This document shows, piece after piece, positions 1 through 5,344 of a stretch of DNA of 5,344 nt. The position numbers and the translations under genes were made by a program. Source of the DNA: a virus (Duplodnaviria; Heunggongvirae; Uroviricota; Caudoviricetes); IMG/VR virus record IMGVR_UViG_2541047812_000002, positions 1-5,344 of that record. One strand, 5' to 3'. The notes beneath the pieces are model-generated. The model ran no database searches and was not told the DNA's origin. It worked only from the letters and a program-made list of their open reading frames with translations. Every line of letters starts with the position of its first letter. The stretch's first letter is position 1.

Positions 1-73
1 TTTAACCAGGGCGGGTATCGCTCGGTTTCGGGTATAACCTTAGGAAATTTTTTCCCACCTGTAAAGCACTTTT

Positions 74-105
74 TATATAAATCTATAATTATATATTTAT
101 AGATT
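74..105. repeat. Iteron cluster A: four tandem 8-bp AT-rich units (TATATAAA TCTATAAT TATATATT TATAGATT), related to the clusters flanking the par genes
   Basis: Read directly from sequence. 8-bp periodicity with units starting TATA/TCTA. Contains TTATATAAATCTATA (74-88), the exact reverse complement of TATAGATTTATATAA found in clusters B and D. Outer arms AAATCTATAA / TTATAGATTT form a 10-bp inverted repeat. Confidence 0.6.
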
Positions 106-156
106 TTCGATGTTCCCGATATCTACACACCATCAAAACAGCTCAAAATGACACTT

Positions 157-534
157 TTACTCTCTTCGCTTTTTCAAATAGTCGACAACATACGCCCTGG
201 CTTTTGCCAGCTTCCGGCGATACTGTCTGAGACTAAGAGAAAGGGCGTGGGCTTTATCAATATGCGGTGCATTTATGTCGAGGCCCCGAATCTCCCACGC
301 CCCGTATTCAATTCGGACAACCAGCGCCGCAGTCTCATCAACTACCGTGAGGGCCGTCACCGCTCCCTCGATACTGGTTTCCAGTGAGTCATTTGGTGCG
401 CCGCCCCCTCCGGTAAACTGGCAGCGCGTAACCATCATCATTTCTAACATCGACGCGAAACCGCTACGGGCGTTGCAGCCATTGCGCACCCACAGCGCCC
501 ATAGCTCAAACAAGCTATCCAGATCGCGTCTCAC
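157..534 (-). CDS. Putative phage antitermination protein Q-like (short QuuD-type family)
   Basis: 125-aa ORF, last gene of the coupled minus-strand operon (3-nt gap to the upstream gene). N-terminal LFELWALWVRNG motif and helix-rich C-terminus (LSLSLRQYRRKLAKARAYVVDYL) resemble my recollection of the Phage_antitermQ family. Position at the distal end of a cro-led operon fits. Assigned from memory, not a search. Confidence 0.4.
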   Translation of the reverse strand: MRRDLDSLFELWALWVRNGCNARSGFASMLEMMMVTRCQFTGGGGAPNDSLETSIEGAVTALTVVDETAALVVRIEYGAWEIRGLDINAPHIDKAHALSLSLRQYRRKLAKARAYVVDYLKKRRE

Positions 535-537
535 TGT

Positions 538-870
538 TCAGATCTCCCGTATCGTGACGGGATAAAGCGCCTCTACCTGCTTTTTCTTCATGATGTAGAC
601 GTCTGTTCGCACACCTTTAGTGTCGACACAATCAATCGTCCCATCGTCATAAAACACCATGAAATCAAGTTTATAAACGACACCACCTGGCAGATGAAAA
701 GGCACCTGCATAAGAAACGTCACAACGCGGCCAGCTTTTCTCAGTAGCTTCAGTTCGCAGTAGTAATCAGCCTCTTTTTTGCTATCAAAAGAGATATCAT
801 CGACAACAGTTTTTTTATTGCCGTATTTGCTTTTCCTGGTCGCTGGTTTGCGAAAGCCGGTATATCTCAT
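538..870 (-). CDS. DUF1064-family phage protein (putative nuclease/resolvase-like)
   Basis: 110-aa translation contains KYGNKKTVVDDISFDSKKEADYYCELKLLRKAG ... YKLDFMVFYDDGTIDCVDTKGVRTDVYIMKKK ... IREI, matching the conserved pattern I recall for DUF1064 proteins (KYGNKKT..DG..FDSKKEA..Y.EL.LL.KAG ... DF.Y ... DVKG..T..Y..KKK). Start overlaps the upstream gene stop by 4 nt (ATGA). Confidence 0.65.
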   Translation of the reverse strand: MRYTGFRKPATRKSKYGNKKTVVDDISFDSKKEADYYCELKLLRKAGRVVTFLMQVPFHLPGGVVYKLDFMVFYDDGTIDCVDTKGVRTDVYIMKKKQVEALYPVTIREI

Positions 871-1271
871 TTGGTATCCCCTGGTACTTCACCAAGACTA
901 AGATCAAACCCAATTTCGTCTTTAACTGACTGCGGCAACAGCTCCCACGTCTGCGCACACAAAAATTCATCGGTGCCATAACGCTCAACAAAGCGAGCAC
1001 AATTACTCAGGGGAGGGTGACGAACGGCAATATGCGGAGGCACGCGCCCACCACCAGGCACAACACCGCGATGATGTGGTGCGCACAACCCAAAGCTATG
1101 GAAGTGGCAATTCTCATCAACGCTGCCGTAATCAGGATCGTGATGTAGCTCCGTCCACAGCTCTGGATTCTCAATTTCACGGCCATCAATAATGCAAGCT
1201 ATGCAACCCACGTGAGTGAGCACCGCTTGTATATAAAGTTTCTCTTTCTTCGTTGGTGTACGTCCGTTCAT
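867..1271 (-). CDS. Cys/His-rich hypothetical protein, possible Zn-binding phage nuclease-like protein
   Basis: 134-aa ORF in the coupled operon. Contains CIAC, HHD, CHFHSFGLC and HH clusters suggestive of metal binding. AAGGGG Shine-Dalgarno about 5 nt upstream of the ATG. Family not confidently recognised. Confidence 0.5.
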   Translation of the reverse strand: MNGRTPTKKEKLYIQAVLTHVGCIACIIDGREIENPELWTELHHDPDYGSVDENCHFHSFGLCAPHHRGVVPGGGRVPPHIAVRHPPLSNCARFVERYGTDEFLCAQTWELLPQSVKDEIGFDLSLGEVPGDTK

Positions 1272-1504
1272 CAGCGCCCCTTACCATTGATAAAGAGGTT
1301 GAACTCGTTGATTAACTGGACATACATGCTTCTGGCCGCGTAGTTCTTTGCCAGCTCTTTACGGGATGAGATCCCGCAAAACTCACGCAGAATCACAGAG
1401 GCCTCAGAACTGTTTGAAACGTTCTTCCCTGTTTTACTGGTCAGAAAGCGCCAGAATTGGGGATTCTGGCAATGCATCGCAGCACCGCGAACATAACTAC
1501 TCAT
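1271..1504 (-). CDS. Hypothetical small protein (77 aa)
   Basis: ORF in the coupled operon: its start overlaps the upstream stop (ATGA) and its stop shares one nucleotide with the downstream start (TGATG). No recognisable motif. Confidence 0.4.
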   Translation of the reverse strand: MSSYVRGAAMHCQNPQFWRFLTSKTGKNVSNSSEASVILREFCGISSRKELAKNYAARSMYVQLINEFNLFINGKGR

Positions 1505-2016
1505 TGATGGCCCCCGTCATTTCTGGTGCTTTTCACCGTGCGGCTTCTTAAAAACCTGCCATCACGAACAACAGACACTTCTCGTTTACCCAACCTCATT
1601 TCACGGCGGTAACATTCAGAAAATGCCTCGTCCGGCATCATATAAATGCGACGCTTCGCCTCCGTATCCAGAAGGGAACGGCTTGGGGTTACATATAAAA
1701 ACGACTCATCAATAGGGACAAAACCACGAGCAAGAATTGCTGGCAGAATGCCAGGAAGAACGCAGAAAACAGCTCCACGATGCAGCAACATCAGGTACTC
1801 CATGACCTCCGTTATCCCCGTGACTACTGTTACGGTGTCACGTCTGTTACGGCTGGCAACCAGTCGCTGCACACGTCCAATTTTCTGATCTACAGATAGA
1901 TGTTTGCTATCGTTATCAATATGATCGATAGCAAATCCTTTAATCGTTTGATCAAGGTAGTGCACCACCTTCGATTGAATCTGGTGATTATCACCAAAGA
2001 AGGCCAGAATCATCAT
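1501..2016 (-). CDS. Hypothetical protein (171 aa), second gene of the early operon
   Basis: Long ORF whose ATG overlaps the stop of the cro-like gene (ATGATGA). GGGAGG and GAGGA Shine-Dalgarno candidates upstream. No family recognised from the sequence alone. Confidence 0.55.
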   Translation of the reverse strand: MMILAFFGDNHQIQSKVVHYLDQTIKGFAIDHIDNDSKHLSVDQKIGRVQRLVASRNRRDTVTVVTGITEVMEYLMLLHRGAVFCVLPGILPAILARGFVPIDESFLYVTPSRSLLDTEAKRRIYMMPDEAFSECYRREMRLGKREVSVVRDGRFLRSRTVKSTRNDGGHQ

Positions 2017-2507
2017 TCCTCAAGCCTCCCAAGTGCTGAACGCCGGGCGTTGCTAATCTCCTTATGAATCAGCTCGATATCGCTGGAATCTTTATTCTTA
2101 AGCTCCAGCACGGTAATCGCATCACGAACCTCTGAAACGGTTACGTGTGAGTGTTTCCAGCGAGCAATGAATCGCGGACCGCGTAGATTGCAACGCTCCG
2201 CAGGCATCCCCAACTCAGAGAAAACCGCTTTCAGCCTTGATAAGCAGTTAACAGGGAGATTCCCTTTGATCTTGTTCTGCCGAACCGATGTGCCATCGCT
2301 ACGCTGGCGCTGACGTTCGGCAAAATCTGCCGCCCATTGCTGGACGTTAATCCGGCCTTCCGAATACGCCACCAGCAGCGTCAGGTTATCCGCACGAGGG
2401 AATCTCTCGAAGCGATACCAGGCACCAATCAGTGATGACGTAAAGCCAAACTTTCTGGCAACACCAATTTGGCCTCCATTTTCGTCAACCCACTCCTGAA
2501 AGGTCAT
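2013..2507 (-). CDS. Cro/CII-like HTH DNA-binding protein with about 100-aa C-terminal extension
   Basis: 164-aa ORF transcribed divergently from the repressor gene. N-terminus (QIGVARKFGFTSSLIGAWYRF) has the pattern of Cro/YdaS-type HTH proteins. GGAG Shine-Dalgarno 8 nt upstream of the ATG. Promoter and operators lie immediately upstream. Confidence 0.55.
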   Translation of the reverse strand: MTFQEWVDENGGQIGVARKFGFTSSLIGAWYRFERFPRADNLTLLVAYSEGRINVQQWAADFAERQRQRSDGTSVRQNKIKGNLPVNCLSRLKAVFSELGMPAERCNLRGPRFIARWKHSHVTVSEVRDAITVLELKNKDSSDIELIHKEISNARRSALGRLEE

Positions 2508-2526
2508 TTAACGAACTCCAGTTAAA

Positions 2527-2541
2527 ACCACGATATGTGGT
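2527..2541. promoter_or_regulatory. Operator-like palindrome O1 (ACCAC-GATAT-GTGGT)
   Basis: Perfect 5-bp inverted arms ACCAC/GTGGT with a 5-bp spacer. Lies just downstream of the -10 of the putative cro-like promoter, on the minus strand. Confidence 0.5.
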
Positions 2542-2570
2542 ATTAAAACCACATATCGTGAGTTTTTCAA
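2542..2570 (-). promoter_or_regulatory. Putative sigma70 promoter of the cro-like/early operon
   Basis: On the minus strand: -35 TTGAAA (2565-2570), 17-bp spacer, -10 TTTAAT (2542-2547). A T10 tract (A10 on the plus strand, 2576-2585) lies just upstream and could act as a UP element. Operator O2 fills the spacer. Confidence 0.45.
2548..2562. promoter_or_regulatory. Operator-like palindrome O2 (ACCAC-ATATC-GTGAG)
   Basis: Same ACCAC-N5-GTG(G) architecture as O1, with one imperfect arm. Its core is the reverse complement of the O1 core. Occupies 15 of the 17 spacer positions between the -35 and -10 of the putative cro-like promoter. Confidence 0.5.
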
Positions 2571-2628
2571 TGGGCAAAAAAAAAATAACCTTCTATTTGT
2601 GGTCCACCTCTCGTCTTACCATGTGAAA

Positions 2629-2643
2629 ACCACTAAATGTGGT
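2629..2643. promoter_or_regulatory. Operator-like palindrome O3 (ACCAC-TAAAT-GTGGT)
   Basis: Third copy of ACCAC-N5-GTGGT. Sits 5 bp upstream of a TATAAA -10-like hexamer (2648-2653, with TG at 2646-2647) about 28 bp ahead of the repressor ATG. Confidence 0.45.
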
Positions 2644-2680
2644 AATGTATAAATAACCCACCATTCACGATTGATGAGAC

Positions 2681-3337
2681 ATGAAAAGCAACGACGAGAA
2701 CATCAAGAAAGAAATAGGTCTGCGCATTCAGACTCTACGGAAACAATCCGGCATGACTGCCGGAGATCTCCAGCAAGTCACTGGAATAGGCTTAAGCACC
2801 TTGCAGAACTATGAGGCCGGATTAAGACAACCATCTATACCTGCCATCAAGAAAATCGCGCACGCCCTGAAAGCATCAGCGCCTTATATCGCGTGCTTAA
2901 CAGATAACCCGTTCCCACCCCAGAATACTAACGCTCCTGTTATTCCTGGGCTTGTAGCTATAAAAAATGACATAGCATCGCACGCCGGAGAAAAGCCAGT
3001 GCTGGCGATAGAACAGGAGATTCTACGAAGCAAGAACATCAACCCATCGTCTCTGTCAGTTCTCCAGAGCAACGATGAGTTAATGTCACCAACAATATCC
3101 CCTGGCTCCCAAGTCCTGATTGATACAGACGATACAGAGATTCATGAGGGGATCTATGCCCTTGAAGACAGAAATGGCCTGGTTGTTTTGAGGCACTGTA
3201 GAGTCATACCGGGTGACAATGCTGTTATGCTGTCAACCGAAAGGGATGCTGAAATGAACACTAAGCATCTGAATAACGAGGAATTTAAGCGTTATAAAGT
3301 TCTGGGCCGCGTAGTTAGTGTTGTCAACTGGTTATGA
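2681..3337 (+). CDS. CI-like transcriptional repressor: N-terminal XRE-type HTH plus C-terminal S24 (LexA/CI)-like domain, apparently catalytically degenerate
   Basis: 218-aa ORF. Residues about 11-70 have the classic XRE HTH pattern (GMTAGDLQQVTGIGLSTLQNYEAGLRQPSIPAIKKIAHAL). The C-terminal 90 aa align to the S24 fold (LMSPTISPGSQVLIDTD ... YKVLGRVVSV), but the GDSM serine position reads DELM and the conserved lysine position is R/H. Confidence 0.7.
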   Translation: MKSNDENIKKEIGLRIQTLRKQSGMTAGDLQQVTGIGLSTLQNYEAGLRQPSIPAIKKIAHALKASAPYIACLTDNPFPPQNTNAPVIPGLVAIKNDIASHAGEKPVLAIEQEILRSKNINPSSLSVLQSNDELMSPTISPGSQVLIDTDDTEIHEGIYALEDRNGLVVLRHCRVIPGDNAVMLSTERDAEMNTKHLNNEEFKRYKVLGRVVSVVNWL

Positions 3338-3379
3338 TACACAGCACGGCGAAAGCCGTGCATTTCTACGCTCAAAAAA

Positions 3380-3394
3380 ACCACATTTTGTGGT
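3380..3394. promoter_or_regulatory. Operator-like palindrome O4 (ACCAC-ATTTT-GTGGT)
   Basis: Fourth copy of the motif, within the longer palindrome AAAACCACATTTTGTGGTTTT, between the repressor stop and the next gene. A TTGACA hexamer follows at 3395-3400, and AGAGG (3419-3423) precedes the ATG at 3430. Confidence 0.45.
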
Positions 3395-3429
3395 TTTGAC
3401 AACATGTGAAAGTATAAAAGAGGCTACGC

Positions 3430-3804
3430 ATGGAATTACATACAGCCAATAAAAACGAAACTCTGATCACTGCTGGAATCGAAATCCAAGCGTTGAACAT
3501 AGCGATTGAGTGTATGTTATGCCAAATCATTGATAATGAGAAAGATATCGACTGGATATCATCTACCCTTCATCTTGCTTACGAGCAAAAAGCCTGCCTC
3601 AAAACAGCCTTACAATACGATGTGCCTTCTGTATCAAAGCTGTGCCAGTCATTGATGGCATATAACAGAGCTATCATTTCTGTATGCCTCATGATTCTCG
3701 ATGAGAATACCCCTCTTAGCGACCGCTCAGAAGCAGCTCTAACCCTCTCACGTAAACAGCGACAGCTAGCAAATCAACTGATATCAACGATAGCTGACCT
3801 CTGA
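3430..3804 (+). CDS. Hypothetical protein (124 aa) downstream of the repressor gene
   Basis: ORF with a good Shine-Dalgarno (AAGAGG, 6-nt spacing) and a stem-loop terminator immediately after its stop. Predicted mostly helical. No family recognised. Confidence 0.5.
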   Translation: MELHTANKNETLITAGIEIQALNIAIECMLCQIIDNEKDIDWISSTLHLAYEQKACLKTALQYDVPSVSKLCQSLMAYNRAIISVCLMILDENTPLSDRSEAALTLSRKQRQLANQLISTIADL

Positions 3805-3808
3805 CTGC

Positions 3809-3828
3809 AAGCGGGCTAACGCCCGCTT
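3809..3828 (+). terminator. Putative intrinsic terminator (stem AAGCGGGC / GCCCGCTT, loop TAAC)
   Basis: Perfect 8-bp GC-rich stem with a 4-nt loop starting 5 nt after the stop at 3804. Followed by AT-rich sequence, though not a clean T-run. Confidence 0.45.
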
Positions 3829-3859
3829 ATATGATTATAGATTTATATAATTATATAAA
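3828..3859. repeat. Iteron cluster B: four tandem 8-bp units (TATATGAT TATAGATT TATATAAT TATATAAA)
   Basis: Read directly from sequence. The 23-mer TATAGATTTATATAATTATATAA (3836-3858) recurs with one mismatch in cluster C. Confidence 0.6.
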
Positions 3860-3881
3860 ACGCTTTTCATCCGCCAAAAAG

Positions 3882-3910
3882 TTGGTTATGCTTACCTCGT
3901 TCTATAAATA
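3882..3910 (+). promoter_or_regulatory. Putative par operon promoter overlapping iteron cluster C
   Basis: -35-like TTGGTT (3882-3887) and a -10-like TATAAA/TAAATA within 3903-3910 at 15-17 bp spacing, between iteron clusters B and C, about 45 bp upstream of the parA-like start. Weak consensus match; inference only. Confidence 0.3.
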
Positions 3911-3932
3911 TAGATTTATAGAATTATATAAC
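3901..3932. repeat. Iteron cluster C: tandem 8-bp units (TCTATAAA TATAGATT TATAGAAT TATATAAC)
   Basis: Read directly from sequence. 3909-3931 (TATAGATTTATAGAATTATATAA) differs from the cluster B 23-mer at one position. Ends 23 bp before the parA-like start. Confidence 0.6.
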
Positions 3933-3954
3933 CAAACACATGGAGTCTCGACAA

Positions 3955-4608
3955 ATGACTATCTCTGTAGGTATTTTCAACGGAAAAGGCGGCGTAACCA
4001 AATCAACAATTGCCCGTGCTTTAGCAGTTGCTTATGCAAAGGCTGGCTGGAATGTATGCCTGATCGATATGGATGTGCTTAACGGAACGGTAACGCGTTG
4101 GGTACAACGCAGAATGGCCAACAATATCGAACCAGCAATCGCGGCGCAGCCGTGCGGCACACCATCACAAGTCCAGAAAATCATCGAATCAGAAGTATAC
4201 GACCTGGTTATCGTCGATGGCGGTGCCTACGCATCTGAATCAGTACCGAAGCTCTCTGAATTTCTGGATATGGTTATTTTGCCAACCAGATTCTCTACCG
4301 ATGACCTGGAAACCACCGTTAACACAGCTCACGGCATCGTTAAAAAGGGTGTACCAATCAAGAAAATTTGCATGGTGTTTTCCGGCGCGGCTGAAAACGA
4401 AGCTGACTATATTGAAGCCCAAGAGTACCTGGCTAATACGCCATACTTTGTTGTCGATAAGTACATTCCCCACAAGCCAGCTCTGAGCAAAGCTCAGGAT
4501 AAGGGCTTAAGCCTTATTGAGTGCTCATACGTTGCGCCACGCAAAAAGGCAGACGATGTTATCCAGGGGATTATCAATCAGCTTGAGGCTCTGACTACTG
4601 CCGCGTAA
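3955..4608 (+). CDS. parA: ParA/ParF-family partition ATPase (small, type Ib; deviant Walker A)
   Basis: N-terminus MTISVGIFNGKGGVTKSTIARALAVAYAKAGWNVCLIDMD carries the deviant Walker A motif KGGxxK[ST] typical of ParA/MinD ATPases. About 217 aa, the size of ParF-type proteins. I prefer the ATG at 3955 (GGAG 9 nt upstream) over the track's ATG at 3940, which has no Shine-Dalgarno. Confidence 0.85.
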   Translation: MTISVGIFNGKGGVTKSTIARALAVAYAKAGWNVCLIDMDVLNGTVTRWVQRRMANNIEPAIAAQPCGTPSQVQKIIESEVYDLVIVDGGAYASESVPKLSEFLDMVILPTRFSTDDLETTVNTAHGIVKKGVPIKKICMVFSGAAENEADYIEAQEYLANTPYFVVDKYIPHKPALSKAQDKGLSLIECSYVAPRKKADDVIQGIINQLEALTTAA

Positions 4609-4640
4609 TATATAATTATAGTTTTATAGATTTATATAAA
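4609..4640. repeat. Iteron cluster D: four tandem 8-bp units (TATATAAT TATAGTTT TATAGATT TATATAAA) filling the parA-parG spacer
   Basis: Read directly from sequence. Begins immediately after the parA-like stop (4606-4608) and ends 11 bp before the parG-like ATG. Shares TATAGATTTATATAA with cluster B. Confidence 0.6.
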
Positions 4641-4651
4641 AGGGGATACAC

Positions 4652-4900
4652 ATGGCCGCACCATCAAAACCACCGAAAAAGAACAGCAAAGGCGTACCGC
4701 CATCAATCGAACAACCGCAGGTTTTCGACCCGACTGAAACGCCGACCAGAACCAAATCAGGTGGGGCACAAATGGCGTTTAACGTCGACCCTGAATTTAA
4801 ACGCGAGTACAAAACGTTCGCCAGCTCAATGGATATGTCATTGAAAGAAGTGCTGACAAAATCTTTTGAGTTACTCAAGGCTCAATACAACCAGAAGTAA
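4652..4900 (+). CDS. ParG-like ribbon-helix-helix centromere-binding protein (82 aa)
   Basis: Immediately downstream of the ParA-like gene, with an AAGGGG Shine-Dalgarno. C-terminal 40 aa (MAFNVDPEFKREYKTFASSMDMSLKEVLTKSFELLKAQY) fits a beta-strand/helix/helix RHH pattern similar to TP228 ParG as I recall it. N-terminal 40 aa is a Pro/Lys-rich, probably disordered tail. Confidence 0.6.
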   Translation: MAAPSKPPKKNSKGVPPSIEQPQVFDPTETPTRTKSGGAQMAFNVDPEFKREYKTFASSMDMSLKEVLTKSFELLKAQYNQK

Positions 4901-4962
4901 GAGAAGGTGACGGCCTCCAGCGCCAACTGTTGGCCGTCGCGACACAACAAGGGGAATTTGTT

Positions 4963-5112
4963 ATGTCCGAGCAACAATATACACGGTTACTGAAAACTCG
5001 TCTAACCGACCTCAAACGGCTGCAAGCTGGTTGCTTATTTGCCCTGCTATCTACCAGGCCAGAATGGGTACGTGAAGCAGTTCTGAAAGGTTTAATGCGC
5101 TCCAGCGTTTAA
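4963..5112 (+). CDS. Hypothetical small protein (49 aa from the ATG at 4963; the track ORF starts at 4930)
   Basis: AAGGGGA Shine-Dalgarno 7 nt upstream of the ATG at 4963. Stop codon TAA (5110-5112) lies 9 bp before the IS terminal repeat. No motif recognised. Confidence 0.3.
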   Translation: MSEQQYTRLLKTRLTDLKRLQAGCLFALLSTRPEWVREAVLKGLMRSSV

Positions 5113-5120
5113 ATTCAACC

Positions 5121-5344
5121 GGCTTTGTTGAATAAATCGAACTTTTGCTGAGTTGAAGGATCAGATCACGCATCCTCCCGACAACACAGACCATTCCGTG
5201 GCAAAGCAAAAGTTCAGAATCACCAACTGGTCCACCTACAACAAAGCTCTCATCAACCGTGGCTCCCTCACTTTCTGGCTGGATGATGAAGCGATTCAGG
5301 CCTGGTATGAGTCGGCAACGCCTTCATCACGAGGAAGGCCCCAG
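5121..5344 (+). mobile_element. IS903-group insertion sequence (IS5 family), left end; partial, continues past the window
   Basis: 5121-5138 GGCTTTGTTGAATAAATC matches the 18-bp terminal inverted repeat of IS903 as I recall it. The following 200 bp match the known IS903 left end with a few substitutions. Confidence 0.85.
5198..5344 (+). CDS. tnp: IS903-family (IS5 family) transposase, N-terminal 49 codons (partial; GTG start; runs off the window)
   Basis: Translation from GTG 5198: VAKQKFRITNWSTYNKALINRGSLTFWLDDEAIQAWYESATPSSRGRPQ, near-identical to the IS903 transposase N-terminus as I remember it (MAKQKFKITNWSTYNKALINRGSLTFWLDDEAIQAWYESATPSSRGRPQ). Absent from the ORF track because it lacks an ATG and is truncated by the window edge. 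Confidence 0.8.
   Translation, partial: MAKQKFRITNWSTYNKALINRGSLTFWLDDEAIQAWYESATPSSRGRPQ

Follow-up and report, generated by a model that had tools for sequence, protein, structure and literature searches.

Why should a stretch of viral DNA carry, well away from its partition (par) genes, a cluster of the same short repeats that surround those genes? We examined this question for cluster A, a set of 8-bp boxes near the start of a 5,344-nt sequence (IMG/VR virus record IMGVR_UViG_2541047812_000002, positions 1–5,344; hereafter, the window). Cluster A ends 51 bp past the stop codon of the open reading frame (ORF) at positions 157–534 (minus strand), which encodes a 125-amino-acid (aa) protein that we call Q-like from its predicted fold, and lies 3.72 kb from cluster B of the par locus; an earlier note on this DNA had given these distances correctly as about 50 bp and about 3.7 kb. 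With moderate confidence, we read cluster A as a binding array for the 82-aa ParG-like adaptor of a type Ib partition system, placed at the promoter of the DUF3560 operon, where it would serve as an operator and probably as an accessory centromere, as one member of a replicon-wide regulon.

The window belongs to a circular replicon: positions 1–5120 are 100% identical to the Escherichia coli plasmid pP136-7 (NZ_CP080230.1, circular, 48,077 bp; L001 below), and window position 1 corresponds to L001 28211. At least 57 plasmids, mostly from Escherichia, span at least 80% of the window, with about 98–100% identity among the matches listed. E. coli ATCC 25922 is among the carriers of a pP136-7-type plasmid (NZ_CP009073.1), and three Yersinia phages (vB_YpM_39, 41, and 44) show 98.8% identity to the window. 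Because the pP136-7 record combines phage genes (head, contractile tail, and lysis) with repA, a toxin-antitoxin pair, and parA, we regard the element as a phage-plasmid; RepA in relatives is of the IncFII_repA type.

Cluster A consists of four phased 8-bp boxes on the minus strand at positions 72–103 (TCTATAAA at 96–103, TATATAAT at 88–95, TATAGATT at 80–87, and TATATAAA at 72–79), so that the array placed by the earlier note at 74–105 exists, with its limits shifted by 2 bp. A repeat search grouped positions 74–106, 3828–3860, 3901–3933, and 4609–4641 as one family. The last three of these correspond to clusters of the par locus, all on the plus strand and each with four units in an exact 8-bp period: cluster B (3828–3859) ends 4 nt upstream of the −35 element of the putative par promoter; cluster C (3901–3932) opens with an inverted-looking unit in the par leader and is followed by GGAGTCTCGACAAATG, which holds the ribosome-binding site and the start of parA; and cluster D (4609–4640) lies between parA and the ParG-like gene. 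Cluster A agrees with these arrays in its unit, as had been claimed, and also in its phasing and its number of units. Its layout is that of cluster C, with which it has the first unit TCTATAAA in common, and with 34.1 in the three-unit matrix scan it scores as high as the arrays of the par locus (32.4–34.1). The 15-mer TATAGATTTATATAA occurs exactly at positions 3836–3850 and 4625–4639 and, on the minus strand, at 73–87, which bears out the further claim that cluster A contains the reverse complement of the 15-mer of clusters B and D. When up to three mismatches were allowed, 12 matches to TATAGATTTATATAA were found in the window against 0.11 expected, and none of 200 shuffles reached 12.

To extend the search to the rest of the replicon, a position matrix was built solely from the eleven direct units found in clusters B, C, and D, and an array was called wherever three consecutive matrix units occurred at exactly 8-bp spacing on either strand of L001 (threshold, 18). 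The scan of this 48-kb replicon returned exactly eight arrays, all scoring 32–34: three at par (B, 32038–32069; C, 32109–32142; D, 32819–32850) and five remote from it (21681–21722, 22825–22858, 27065–27098, 28282–28315, and 37179–37204), of which that at 28282–28315 is cluster A. In other words, cluster A is the fourth cluster within the window, as described earlier, but one of eight in the whole replicon. Each array has three to five contiguous units, and all five remote arrays are intergenic and stand at the starts of genes or operons. Shuffling the sequence within 40-bp blocks, which keeps the local AT content, gave a mean of 0.06 arrays (100 shuffles).

These counts bear on the simplest alternative, that no dedicated protein binds the arrays and that they are ordinary AT-rich DNA of promoters, such as UP-element-like tracts, TATAAT repeats resembling a −10 element, or curved DNA. 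TATAAT does occur within the boxes, the promoter scan found promoter-like hexamers on the minus strand within arrays B and C, and the arrays lie where an UP element would be. We nevertheless consider this explanation barely credible, because eight arrays were observed against 0.06 in the composition-preserving shuffles, because the 8-bp phasing is strict, and because the box types are replicon-specific (one of them contains GC) and matched between par and remote sites. The phasing is maintained even where an array has changed its length: in Escherichia fergusonii (NZ_CP055602.1), in the region matching window positions 96–110, cluster A has gained 16 bp, which are exactly two extra ATCTATAA units. 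Two further candidates were rejected. Replication-initiator iterons are repeats of about 17–22 bp next to a rep gene, whereas the units here are 8 bp and the nearest array is more than 2.5 kb from repA (L001 39788–40768); sites for integration host factor (IHF) or another host-factor consensus were dismissed by inspection and on account of the replicon-specific box types.

For comparison, we used two whole relatives, from Salmonella (L004; ParG-like protein 89–91% identical) and Serratia (L003; ParG-like protein about 40% identical), together with the partial replicons L005–L008, which were reached through homologues of the Q-like protein, and the diverged replicons L021–L031 from IMG/VR. A scan of genome contigs with the Q-like alignment returned one locus, which lacks the par region. 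Cluster A proved to be part of a larger unit. It forms the upstream end of a 117-nt repeat that is present in three copies in L001 (21592–21708, 28193–28309, and 37090–37206), and this cassette runs from the boxes through a −35 element, a palindrome, a −10 element, a hairpin leader, and a ribosome-binding site to an ATG (window positions 1–103 correspond to L001 28211–28313). In a minus-strand alignment of these copies, the stretch between the last boxes and the start codon is unchanged, except for two or three substitutions and one single-base gap just before the ATG; the shared sequence consists of the boxes, AAGTGC-TTTACA-GGTGGGAAAAAATTTCC-TAAGGT-TATACCCGAAACCGAGCGATACCCGCCCTGGTTAAACCGGAGA, a few bases, and the ATG. 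The cluster A copy heads the DUF3560 operon, which is read leftward and comprises the first genes behind the Q-like gene; the start codon of the DUF3560 gene is 13 nt outside the window, past position 1. At the other two copies, the downstream genes are small and have no known function; one of these operons also encodes a helix-turn-helix (HTH) protein, and the copy at L001 37093 belongs to the plasmid-maintenance region, where it heads an operon. In the E. coli lineage, it is the stretch separating the array from the Q-like stop codon that varies, with the array, promoter, and leader almost fixed. Equivalent cassette triplicates were seen in the Salmonella and Serratia relatives.

The putative −35 element of the cassette, TTTACA (60–65, minus strand), lies 6 nt downstream of the last box, a position kept in the E. 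coli, Salmonella, Serratia, and L007 cassettes. The putative −10 element, TAAGGT (37–42, minus strand), is replaced in the relatives by TATGGT, TATTCT, TAATAT, or TATTAT, with T1, A2, and T6 conserved. The Salmonella cassettes read TTTACA-17-TATGGT and passed the promoter scan; in those of Serratia, TTGCAG, TTGCAA, or TTGTGC is followed after 17 nt by TATTCT or TAATAT, and the L007 cassette reads TTGCGT-17-TATTAT. Because the TTG or TTT of the −35 element and T1, A2, and T6 of the −10 element are kept while the other positions drift, the pattern is that expected of a real promoter. Three of the five remote arrays of L001 adjoin a conserved −35/−10 pair of this kind, judged by sequence. Meanwhile, the par locus itself has a putative promoter, TTTTCA-17-TATGCT (3864–3892, plus strand), between clusters B and C. 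Its layout is the same in Salmonella, Serratia, and L007, and the promoter scan did not detect the E. coli copy. The geometry of cluster B relative to this −35 element is that of cluster A relative to the −35 element of the cassette, and cluster C lies downstream of the par promoter.

This geometry bears on the question of whether the remote arrays act on transcription at all. Cluster A could be an accessory centromere only, where binding of the ParG-like protein loads ParA, as at the dispersed N15 sites, and transcription is not meaningfully affected, the promoter position being simply the non-coding DNA that was available. The three to five contiguous units of each array are near the minimum of four that ParA activation requires in pSM19035 (PMC9499535), and some arrays (L001 27065–27098, cluster D, and the site of the L007 clade) have no evident separate promoter. 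However, the spacing between the array and the −35 element is fixed at 4–9 nt in four lineages and recurs at the par promoter, which type Ib adaptors as a rule autoregulate, and the arrays travel with the cassette in all three copies. We therefore judge a purely centromeric role to be unlikely.

The cassette contains two further elements. The palindrome GGGAAAAAATTTCC (43–56) lies inside the 17-nt spacer of the promoter and has the general form TAGGAAA..TTTCCTA in the relatives, being GGGAAAAAATTTCC in E. coli, TAGGAAAATATTTCCTA in Salmonella, and TAGGAAAAAAAGTCCTA in Serratia. Because a fourth promoter, one without boxes, has the same palindrome in its spacer (L001 39175–39191, L004 16340, and L003 16277), it appears to be an operator for another regulator. 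Candidates for the protein that binds it are the small genes driven by palindrome-bearing promoters, for example, that at L001 38857–39144, which has a weak repressor phrog match; the gene at L001 36377–36649 is a further candidate. Downstream, the conserved 5′ untranslated region of the DUF3560 gene would fold into a hairpin, AACCGAGCG-ATACC-CGCCCTGGTT (4–27, minus strand). In the copies of Serratia and L007, GGCC/GGCC takes the place of AACC/GGTT in the outer pairs, which is a compensatory exchange, and one inner G-C pair is A-U in L007; the loop is conserved as ATACC, or as ATAGT or ATAGC in Salmonella. The hairpin has no T-tract and matched no Rfam family (the only matches, C4, isrK, ryfA, and a tRNA, lie elsewhere in the replicon).

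The position of cluster A and the palindrome also recall the late promoter of lambdoid phages, PR′, with its Q-utilization (qut) site, and the earlier note had suggested that such a site would be expected here. Under this explanation, the Q-like protein would load onto RNA polymerase at the promoter, and the repeats or the palindrome would be its binding element. The gene immediately upstream has a predicted fold whose best match is the antiterminator Q21 over its full length, and a promoter-like element follows that gene. In all 16 replicons, an array is found no farther than about 900 bp from the Q-like stop codon, and in 9 of them the distance is at most 51 bp. In lambda, the Q-binding element lies between the −35 and −10 hexamers, and the palindrome of the cassette sits in just this interval. 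However, boxes of this kind also stand on both sides of the par promoter and in the interval that separates parA from the ParG-like gene, where antitermination has no evident role, and the cassette is present three times, once at the head of a plasmid-maintenance operon (L001 37093). The terminator scan found no terminator-like site in L001 28100–28450, and no conserved −10-like element that could act as a sigma-dependent pause was recognized in the initially transcribed region of the cassette. Furthermore, the Q21 fold match is statistically weak, and the sequence of the boxes, which belong to the family of par sites, co-varies with a strand of the ParG-like protein, as described below. Of the late-promoter proposal, the position in a putative promoter region behind a gene with a Q21-like predicted fold is supported, and a lambdoid late promoter with a qut site appears very improbable.

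If the Q-like protein is a poor candidate for the binder of the boxes, the par locus offers a better one. Its parA gene (3955–4608, plus strand) was assigned by Pfam (CbiA/ParA/MipZ), phrog_164, and the RefSeq annotation, and encodes a small Walker-type ParA of 217–222 aa with no N-terminal DNA-binding domain. The ParG-like gene (4652–4900, plus strand; 82 aa) starts 43 nt downstream. Its product is predicted to have a disordered N-terminal tail followed by a strand-helix-helix unit; in the AF2 monomer model, residues 1–40 are disordered and helices span residues 47–59 and 62–79. A word-index protein search with this protein found close relatives only, and a profile of six sequences gave only noise. 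A profile search of 1.84 billion representative proteins, on the other hand, collected about 100 clusters of proteins of 70–90 aa. Among 78 aligned remote homologues, Pfam matches were to RHH_10 (41/78), Antitox_RHH (23/78), 56B_RHH (8/78), and ParG (PF09274, 5/78). Searched against the PDB, the family profile aligned in register over the strand-helix-helix with 2kel, a 56B ribbon-helix-helix protein (E 0.1), and with 1p94, ParG (E 0.13). By transitive homology, the 82-aa protein is thus predicted to be a ribbon-helix-helix protein in the position of ParG, weakly similar to ParG in sequence. A possible third gene of the par operon is a small ORF (window 4963–5112; about 49–60 aa, MSEQQYTRLL...) that follows the ParG-like gene and is conserved in this place in the relatives from Salmonella and Serratia.

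Comparison of the replicons connected this protein with the boxes. The gene order is kept on both sides: one side has the cI-like repressor, a gene of about 124 aa, parA, and the ParG-like gene, and the other a divergent early operon ending in the Ref-like, usually DUF1064, and Q-like genes. The boxes fall into three types across 16 related replicons, a TATA type, a TTAA type, and a AAAGCACG type. The boxes of the par promoter are TATAGATT/TATATAAT in E. coli and Salmonella; GATATAAA/TATATCTT in L007 and L023–L026, with the related ATATAAAT form in L030; TTTAAATA/AAATAAAT or TTAATTAT in Serratia, L005, L008, L027, and L028; and AAAGCACG/AAATAACG/AATTAACG in L031. In every replicon, the k-mers of its own par arrays found more arrays elsewhere, and all 15 relatives have remote arrays of their own box type. 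A 13 × 13 cross-scan with the par k-mers was block-diagonal: the k-mers gave four to seven remote clusters in replicons of their own box group and, across the TATA, TTAA, and ACG groups, essentially none. Most telling is L031, whose boxes do not consist of A and T alone. In its 13.8 kb, the exact 8-mer AAAGCACG is present six times, always within a phased array, namely, at the par promoter and in three of the four remote arrays.

The predicted DNA-reading beta-strand of the ParG-like protein shifts with the box type, through the forms GAQM[AS]FNVD, GKQLL[LF][RQ]LD, G[KR][PA][LM][NH]F[NS][VM]D, and LKPLNFKRS, and in L031, with its GC-containing boxes, the strand has K-R where the proteins of AT-box replicons have N-V or N-M. 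Several tails of TTAA-type ParG-like proteins contain an AT-hook-like GRGRP or VGRP motif. In L005 (3872–4165), L008 (4368–4652), and L027, the tails of the TTAA-box proteins are longer and carry AT-hook-like KRGRGRPRK or RGVGRPK.

Another factor encoded by the replicon, such as the 124-aa protein upstream of parA or a different small regulator, might bind the arrays, in which case the par operon would be one member of its regulon. The 124-aa gene is syntenic in all the relatives, and co-variation cannot separate proteins that diverge together. Against such a factor, the repeats that flank the par promoter in type Ib systems are the sites of the adaptor; the beta-strand of the ParG-like protein shifts with the box type, including the K-R of the GC-box replicon; an AT-hook is found in some ParG-like tails where the boxes are pure AT; and the 124-aa protein is acidic by inspection, has few basic residues, and matched no DNA-binding family. 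We regard this explanation as quite improbable, and the ParG-like protein as the better candidate.

From these comparisons, we infer that the ParG-like protein is the binder, that the cassette promoter is active, and that the arrays regulate it and function in centromere activity, as follows. Each of the four 8-bp boxes of cluster A would accept one ParG-like dimer, and the array would occupy about −40 to −71 of TTTACA-17-TAAGGT, which would be the sigma70-type promoter of the DUF3560 operon. The ParG-like protein would coat cluster A cooperatively and set the activity of this promoter; such control is suggested because cluster B has the same geometry at the −35 element of the par promoter, where type Ib adaptors autoregulate. 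The effect would most likely be repression, through masking of the AT-rich upstream region and the −35 element, so that expression of the DUF3560 operon would be tied to the autoregulated level of ParG and hence to the plasmid copy number. A second regulator would act through the palindrome in the promoter spacer, and the eight arrays together would probably also be dispersed sites for the loading of ParA, that is, centromere sites.

Several points weigh against this proposal. The E. coli promoter TTTACA-17-TAAGGT matches the consensus at 8 of 12 positions and fell under the threshold of the promoter scan, and is plausible as a weak sigma70 promoter. The 82-aa protein had no direct match in Pfam or PDB sequence searches and its monomer model gave no fold match in Foldseek, so that its assignment as a ribbon-helix-helix protein runs through remote homologues. 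Both its binding to the boxes and the activity of the cassette promoter are predicted from sequence. Activation in place of repression would also be compatible with an array at −40 to −71, and gene conversion among the cassette copies could explain part of their identity. The co-variation of box type is confounded by phylogeny, with about three box groups that are independent and with divergence in further proteins of the replicons. Finally, in the L007-like clade, the array after the Q-like gene adjoins a ribosome-binding site, not a separate promoter, and the mechanism may differ between array sites.

Other observations also concern what adjoins the arrays. In L007 (6340–6365) and in L023–L026 and L030 (near 10380–10400), a good extended −10 motif, TGATATAAA, lies inside the array behind the Q-like gene, so that certain arrays may be promoters in their own right. 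In each replicon, parA shares its translation-initiation region, GGAnnCCTCGACA(A)ATG immediately behind an array, with one unrelated second gene (window 3940–3957; L001 27053–27072; L004 27988–28002; L003 27713–27729; L007 6363–6388); the second genes are MarR-like, DGQHR, Lar-like, and one with no known function. This region together with its array looks like a portable module of array plus ribosome-binding site. GC-rich hairpins adjoin the upstream side of array B (window 3814–3829) and the array at 27065–27098 (L001 27098–27125). They are terminator-like, with the array in the place of the T-tract, and scored below the threshold of the terminator scan.

A more far-reaching version of the favored reading would make the ribbon-helix-helix adaptor the master regulator of the plasmid state and the copy-number sensor of this phage-plasmid family, with one pool of adaptor shared among the eight arrays of each genome copy. 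Runaway replication after induction would then let the arrays titrate the adaptor, so that the three cassette promoters and the other array-fronted genes would be released together. Partition would in this way be coupled to the switch between maintenance and lysis, possibly with the participation of the Q21-like protein and the regulator that binds the palindrome. We put this forward as a speculative extension that is rather unlikely as it stands.

How do these arrays compare with known systems? ParG of TP228 binds ACTC boxes separated by 4-bp AT spacers (8-bp period), direct or inverted, with one dimer per box, and it binds both the centromere parH and the operator OF (PMC3130281). Like the ParF/ParG system (type Ib), the present one has a gene for a small ParA and, behind it, one for a small predicted ribbon-helix-helix adaptor whose N-terminal tail would be flexible, together with short boxes of 8-bp period and mixed orientation upstream of the par genes, where TP228 has its centromere and operator. 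The boxes themselves differ: they are ACTC in TP228, but of the TATA(G/T)A type (TATA(G/T)AWW) here and of the TTAA and ACG types in relatives, and no ACTC periodicity was found in the arrays of the window. Because the boxes are not ACTC, the arrays would resemble the ParG/parH system in their working but belong to another specificity group. The 20 boxes of TP228 all lie upstream of parFG, whereas the arrays here, of about four boxes each, extend to the junction of parA with the ParG-like gene and to five remote sites at distances of up to about 10 kb, and the sequence similarity to ParG is marginal (E 0.13, with the family profile).

Another close analogue is the system of pSM19035 with omega as its ParB and Delta as its ParA, in which arrays of 7-bp repeats (parS sites) overlap the copS, delta, and omega promoters and at least four contiguous repeats are needed for full activation of ParA (PMC9499535). 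Both systems have a ribbon-helix-helix adaptor, which is predicted here, and contiguous short repeats in mixed orientation (with one dimer per repeat in omega), and arrays at several promoters, putative ones in the present replicon; in pSM19035, these are both centromeres and operators and link partition with other plasmid functions. They differ in the repeat (7 bp, WATCACW, in arrays of 7–10 in pSM19035, but 8 bp in arrays of three to five here), in the host (a Firmicute there and an enterobacterium here), and in the regulon, which in pSM19035 consists of plasmid maintenance genes only, whereas the remote arrays here head operons of the phage region and are joined by a second operator in the spacer.

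Adaptors with dispersed sites are also found outside this protein family. KorB of RK2 (IncP) is a ParB homologue that acts as a global transcriptional regulator through OB operators spread around the replicon, and the ParG-like adaptor resembles it in having candidate sites dispersed over the replicon, as a putative regulator of several promoters. KorB is a helix-turn-helix ParB that binds 13-bp palindromes, and RK2 has neither phage genes nor short-box arrays. The Sop system of the phage-plasmid N15 is said, in the title of a 2008 paper by Ravin, Rech, and Lane (cited in PMC11652158), to facilitate late gene expression. N15 has the Sop centromere sites IR1–4 (PMC7205306) and, like the present replicon with its putative sites, is a phage-plasmid with several partition-protein sites that are not confined to the par locus. 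It differs in being linear, not circular, and in having a type Ia system with a large SopA, a helix-turn-helix SopB, and single inverted-repeat sites, whereas a type Ib system with a ribbon-helix-helix protein and multi-box arrays is predicted here. The parallel that the earlier note had drawn with N15, of dispersed partition sites at phage promoters, fits the five remote arrays at gene or operon starts and the co-variation in 16 replicons.

Some neighboring features of the replicon were also recorded. Window positions 5121–5344 are the terminus of an IS903-family element, of which pP136-7 has no copy at that site; the insertion point adjoins pP136-7 matches to ryfA RNA and then to isrK and the C4 antisense RNA (L001 33333–34187), in a P1-like immunity region with an ORF6N antirepressor-like gene. 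ACCAC-N5/6-GTGGT palindromes are repeated at window positions 2521–2567, 2622–2653, and 3375–3404; they flank the cI-like repressor gene (2681–3337), lie in the divergent early promoter region, and are probably operators of the cI-like repressor. A tRNA gene (L001 22615–22687; tRNA-Met in a Yersinia phage record) lies about 140 bp downstream of the remote array at 22825–22858, upstream of an MT-A70 methyltransferase gene.

Our literature searches found no description of the partition system of this plasmid family or of these arrays. That a partition adaptor can regulate several promoters is already known from omega, KorB, and N15. What would be new is a type Ib ribbon-helix-helix system of this kind in an enterobacterial phage-plasmid, with short arrays that have spread to operons of the phage region and that, in a triplicated cassette, stand together with a second operator, and with at least three naturally co-evolved specificities. 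Phage-plasmids reconcile stable low-copy inheritance with a lytic program, and the linkage between the two is poorly understood outside P1 and N15. Strains of E. coli commonly carry the present element, the reference strain ATCC 25922 among them, and it has also been isolated as an infectious phage. It offers a sequence-defined, testable regulon of one small partition protein, eight arrays, and three promoter cassettes, and its natural specificity variants, at least three in number, can be used for swap experiments. If the ParG-like protein does control these promoters, the principle known from omega and KorB would extend to the type Ib systems of enterobacterial phage-plasmids, and the arrays would identify short, portable operator cassettes that move with their cargo genes.

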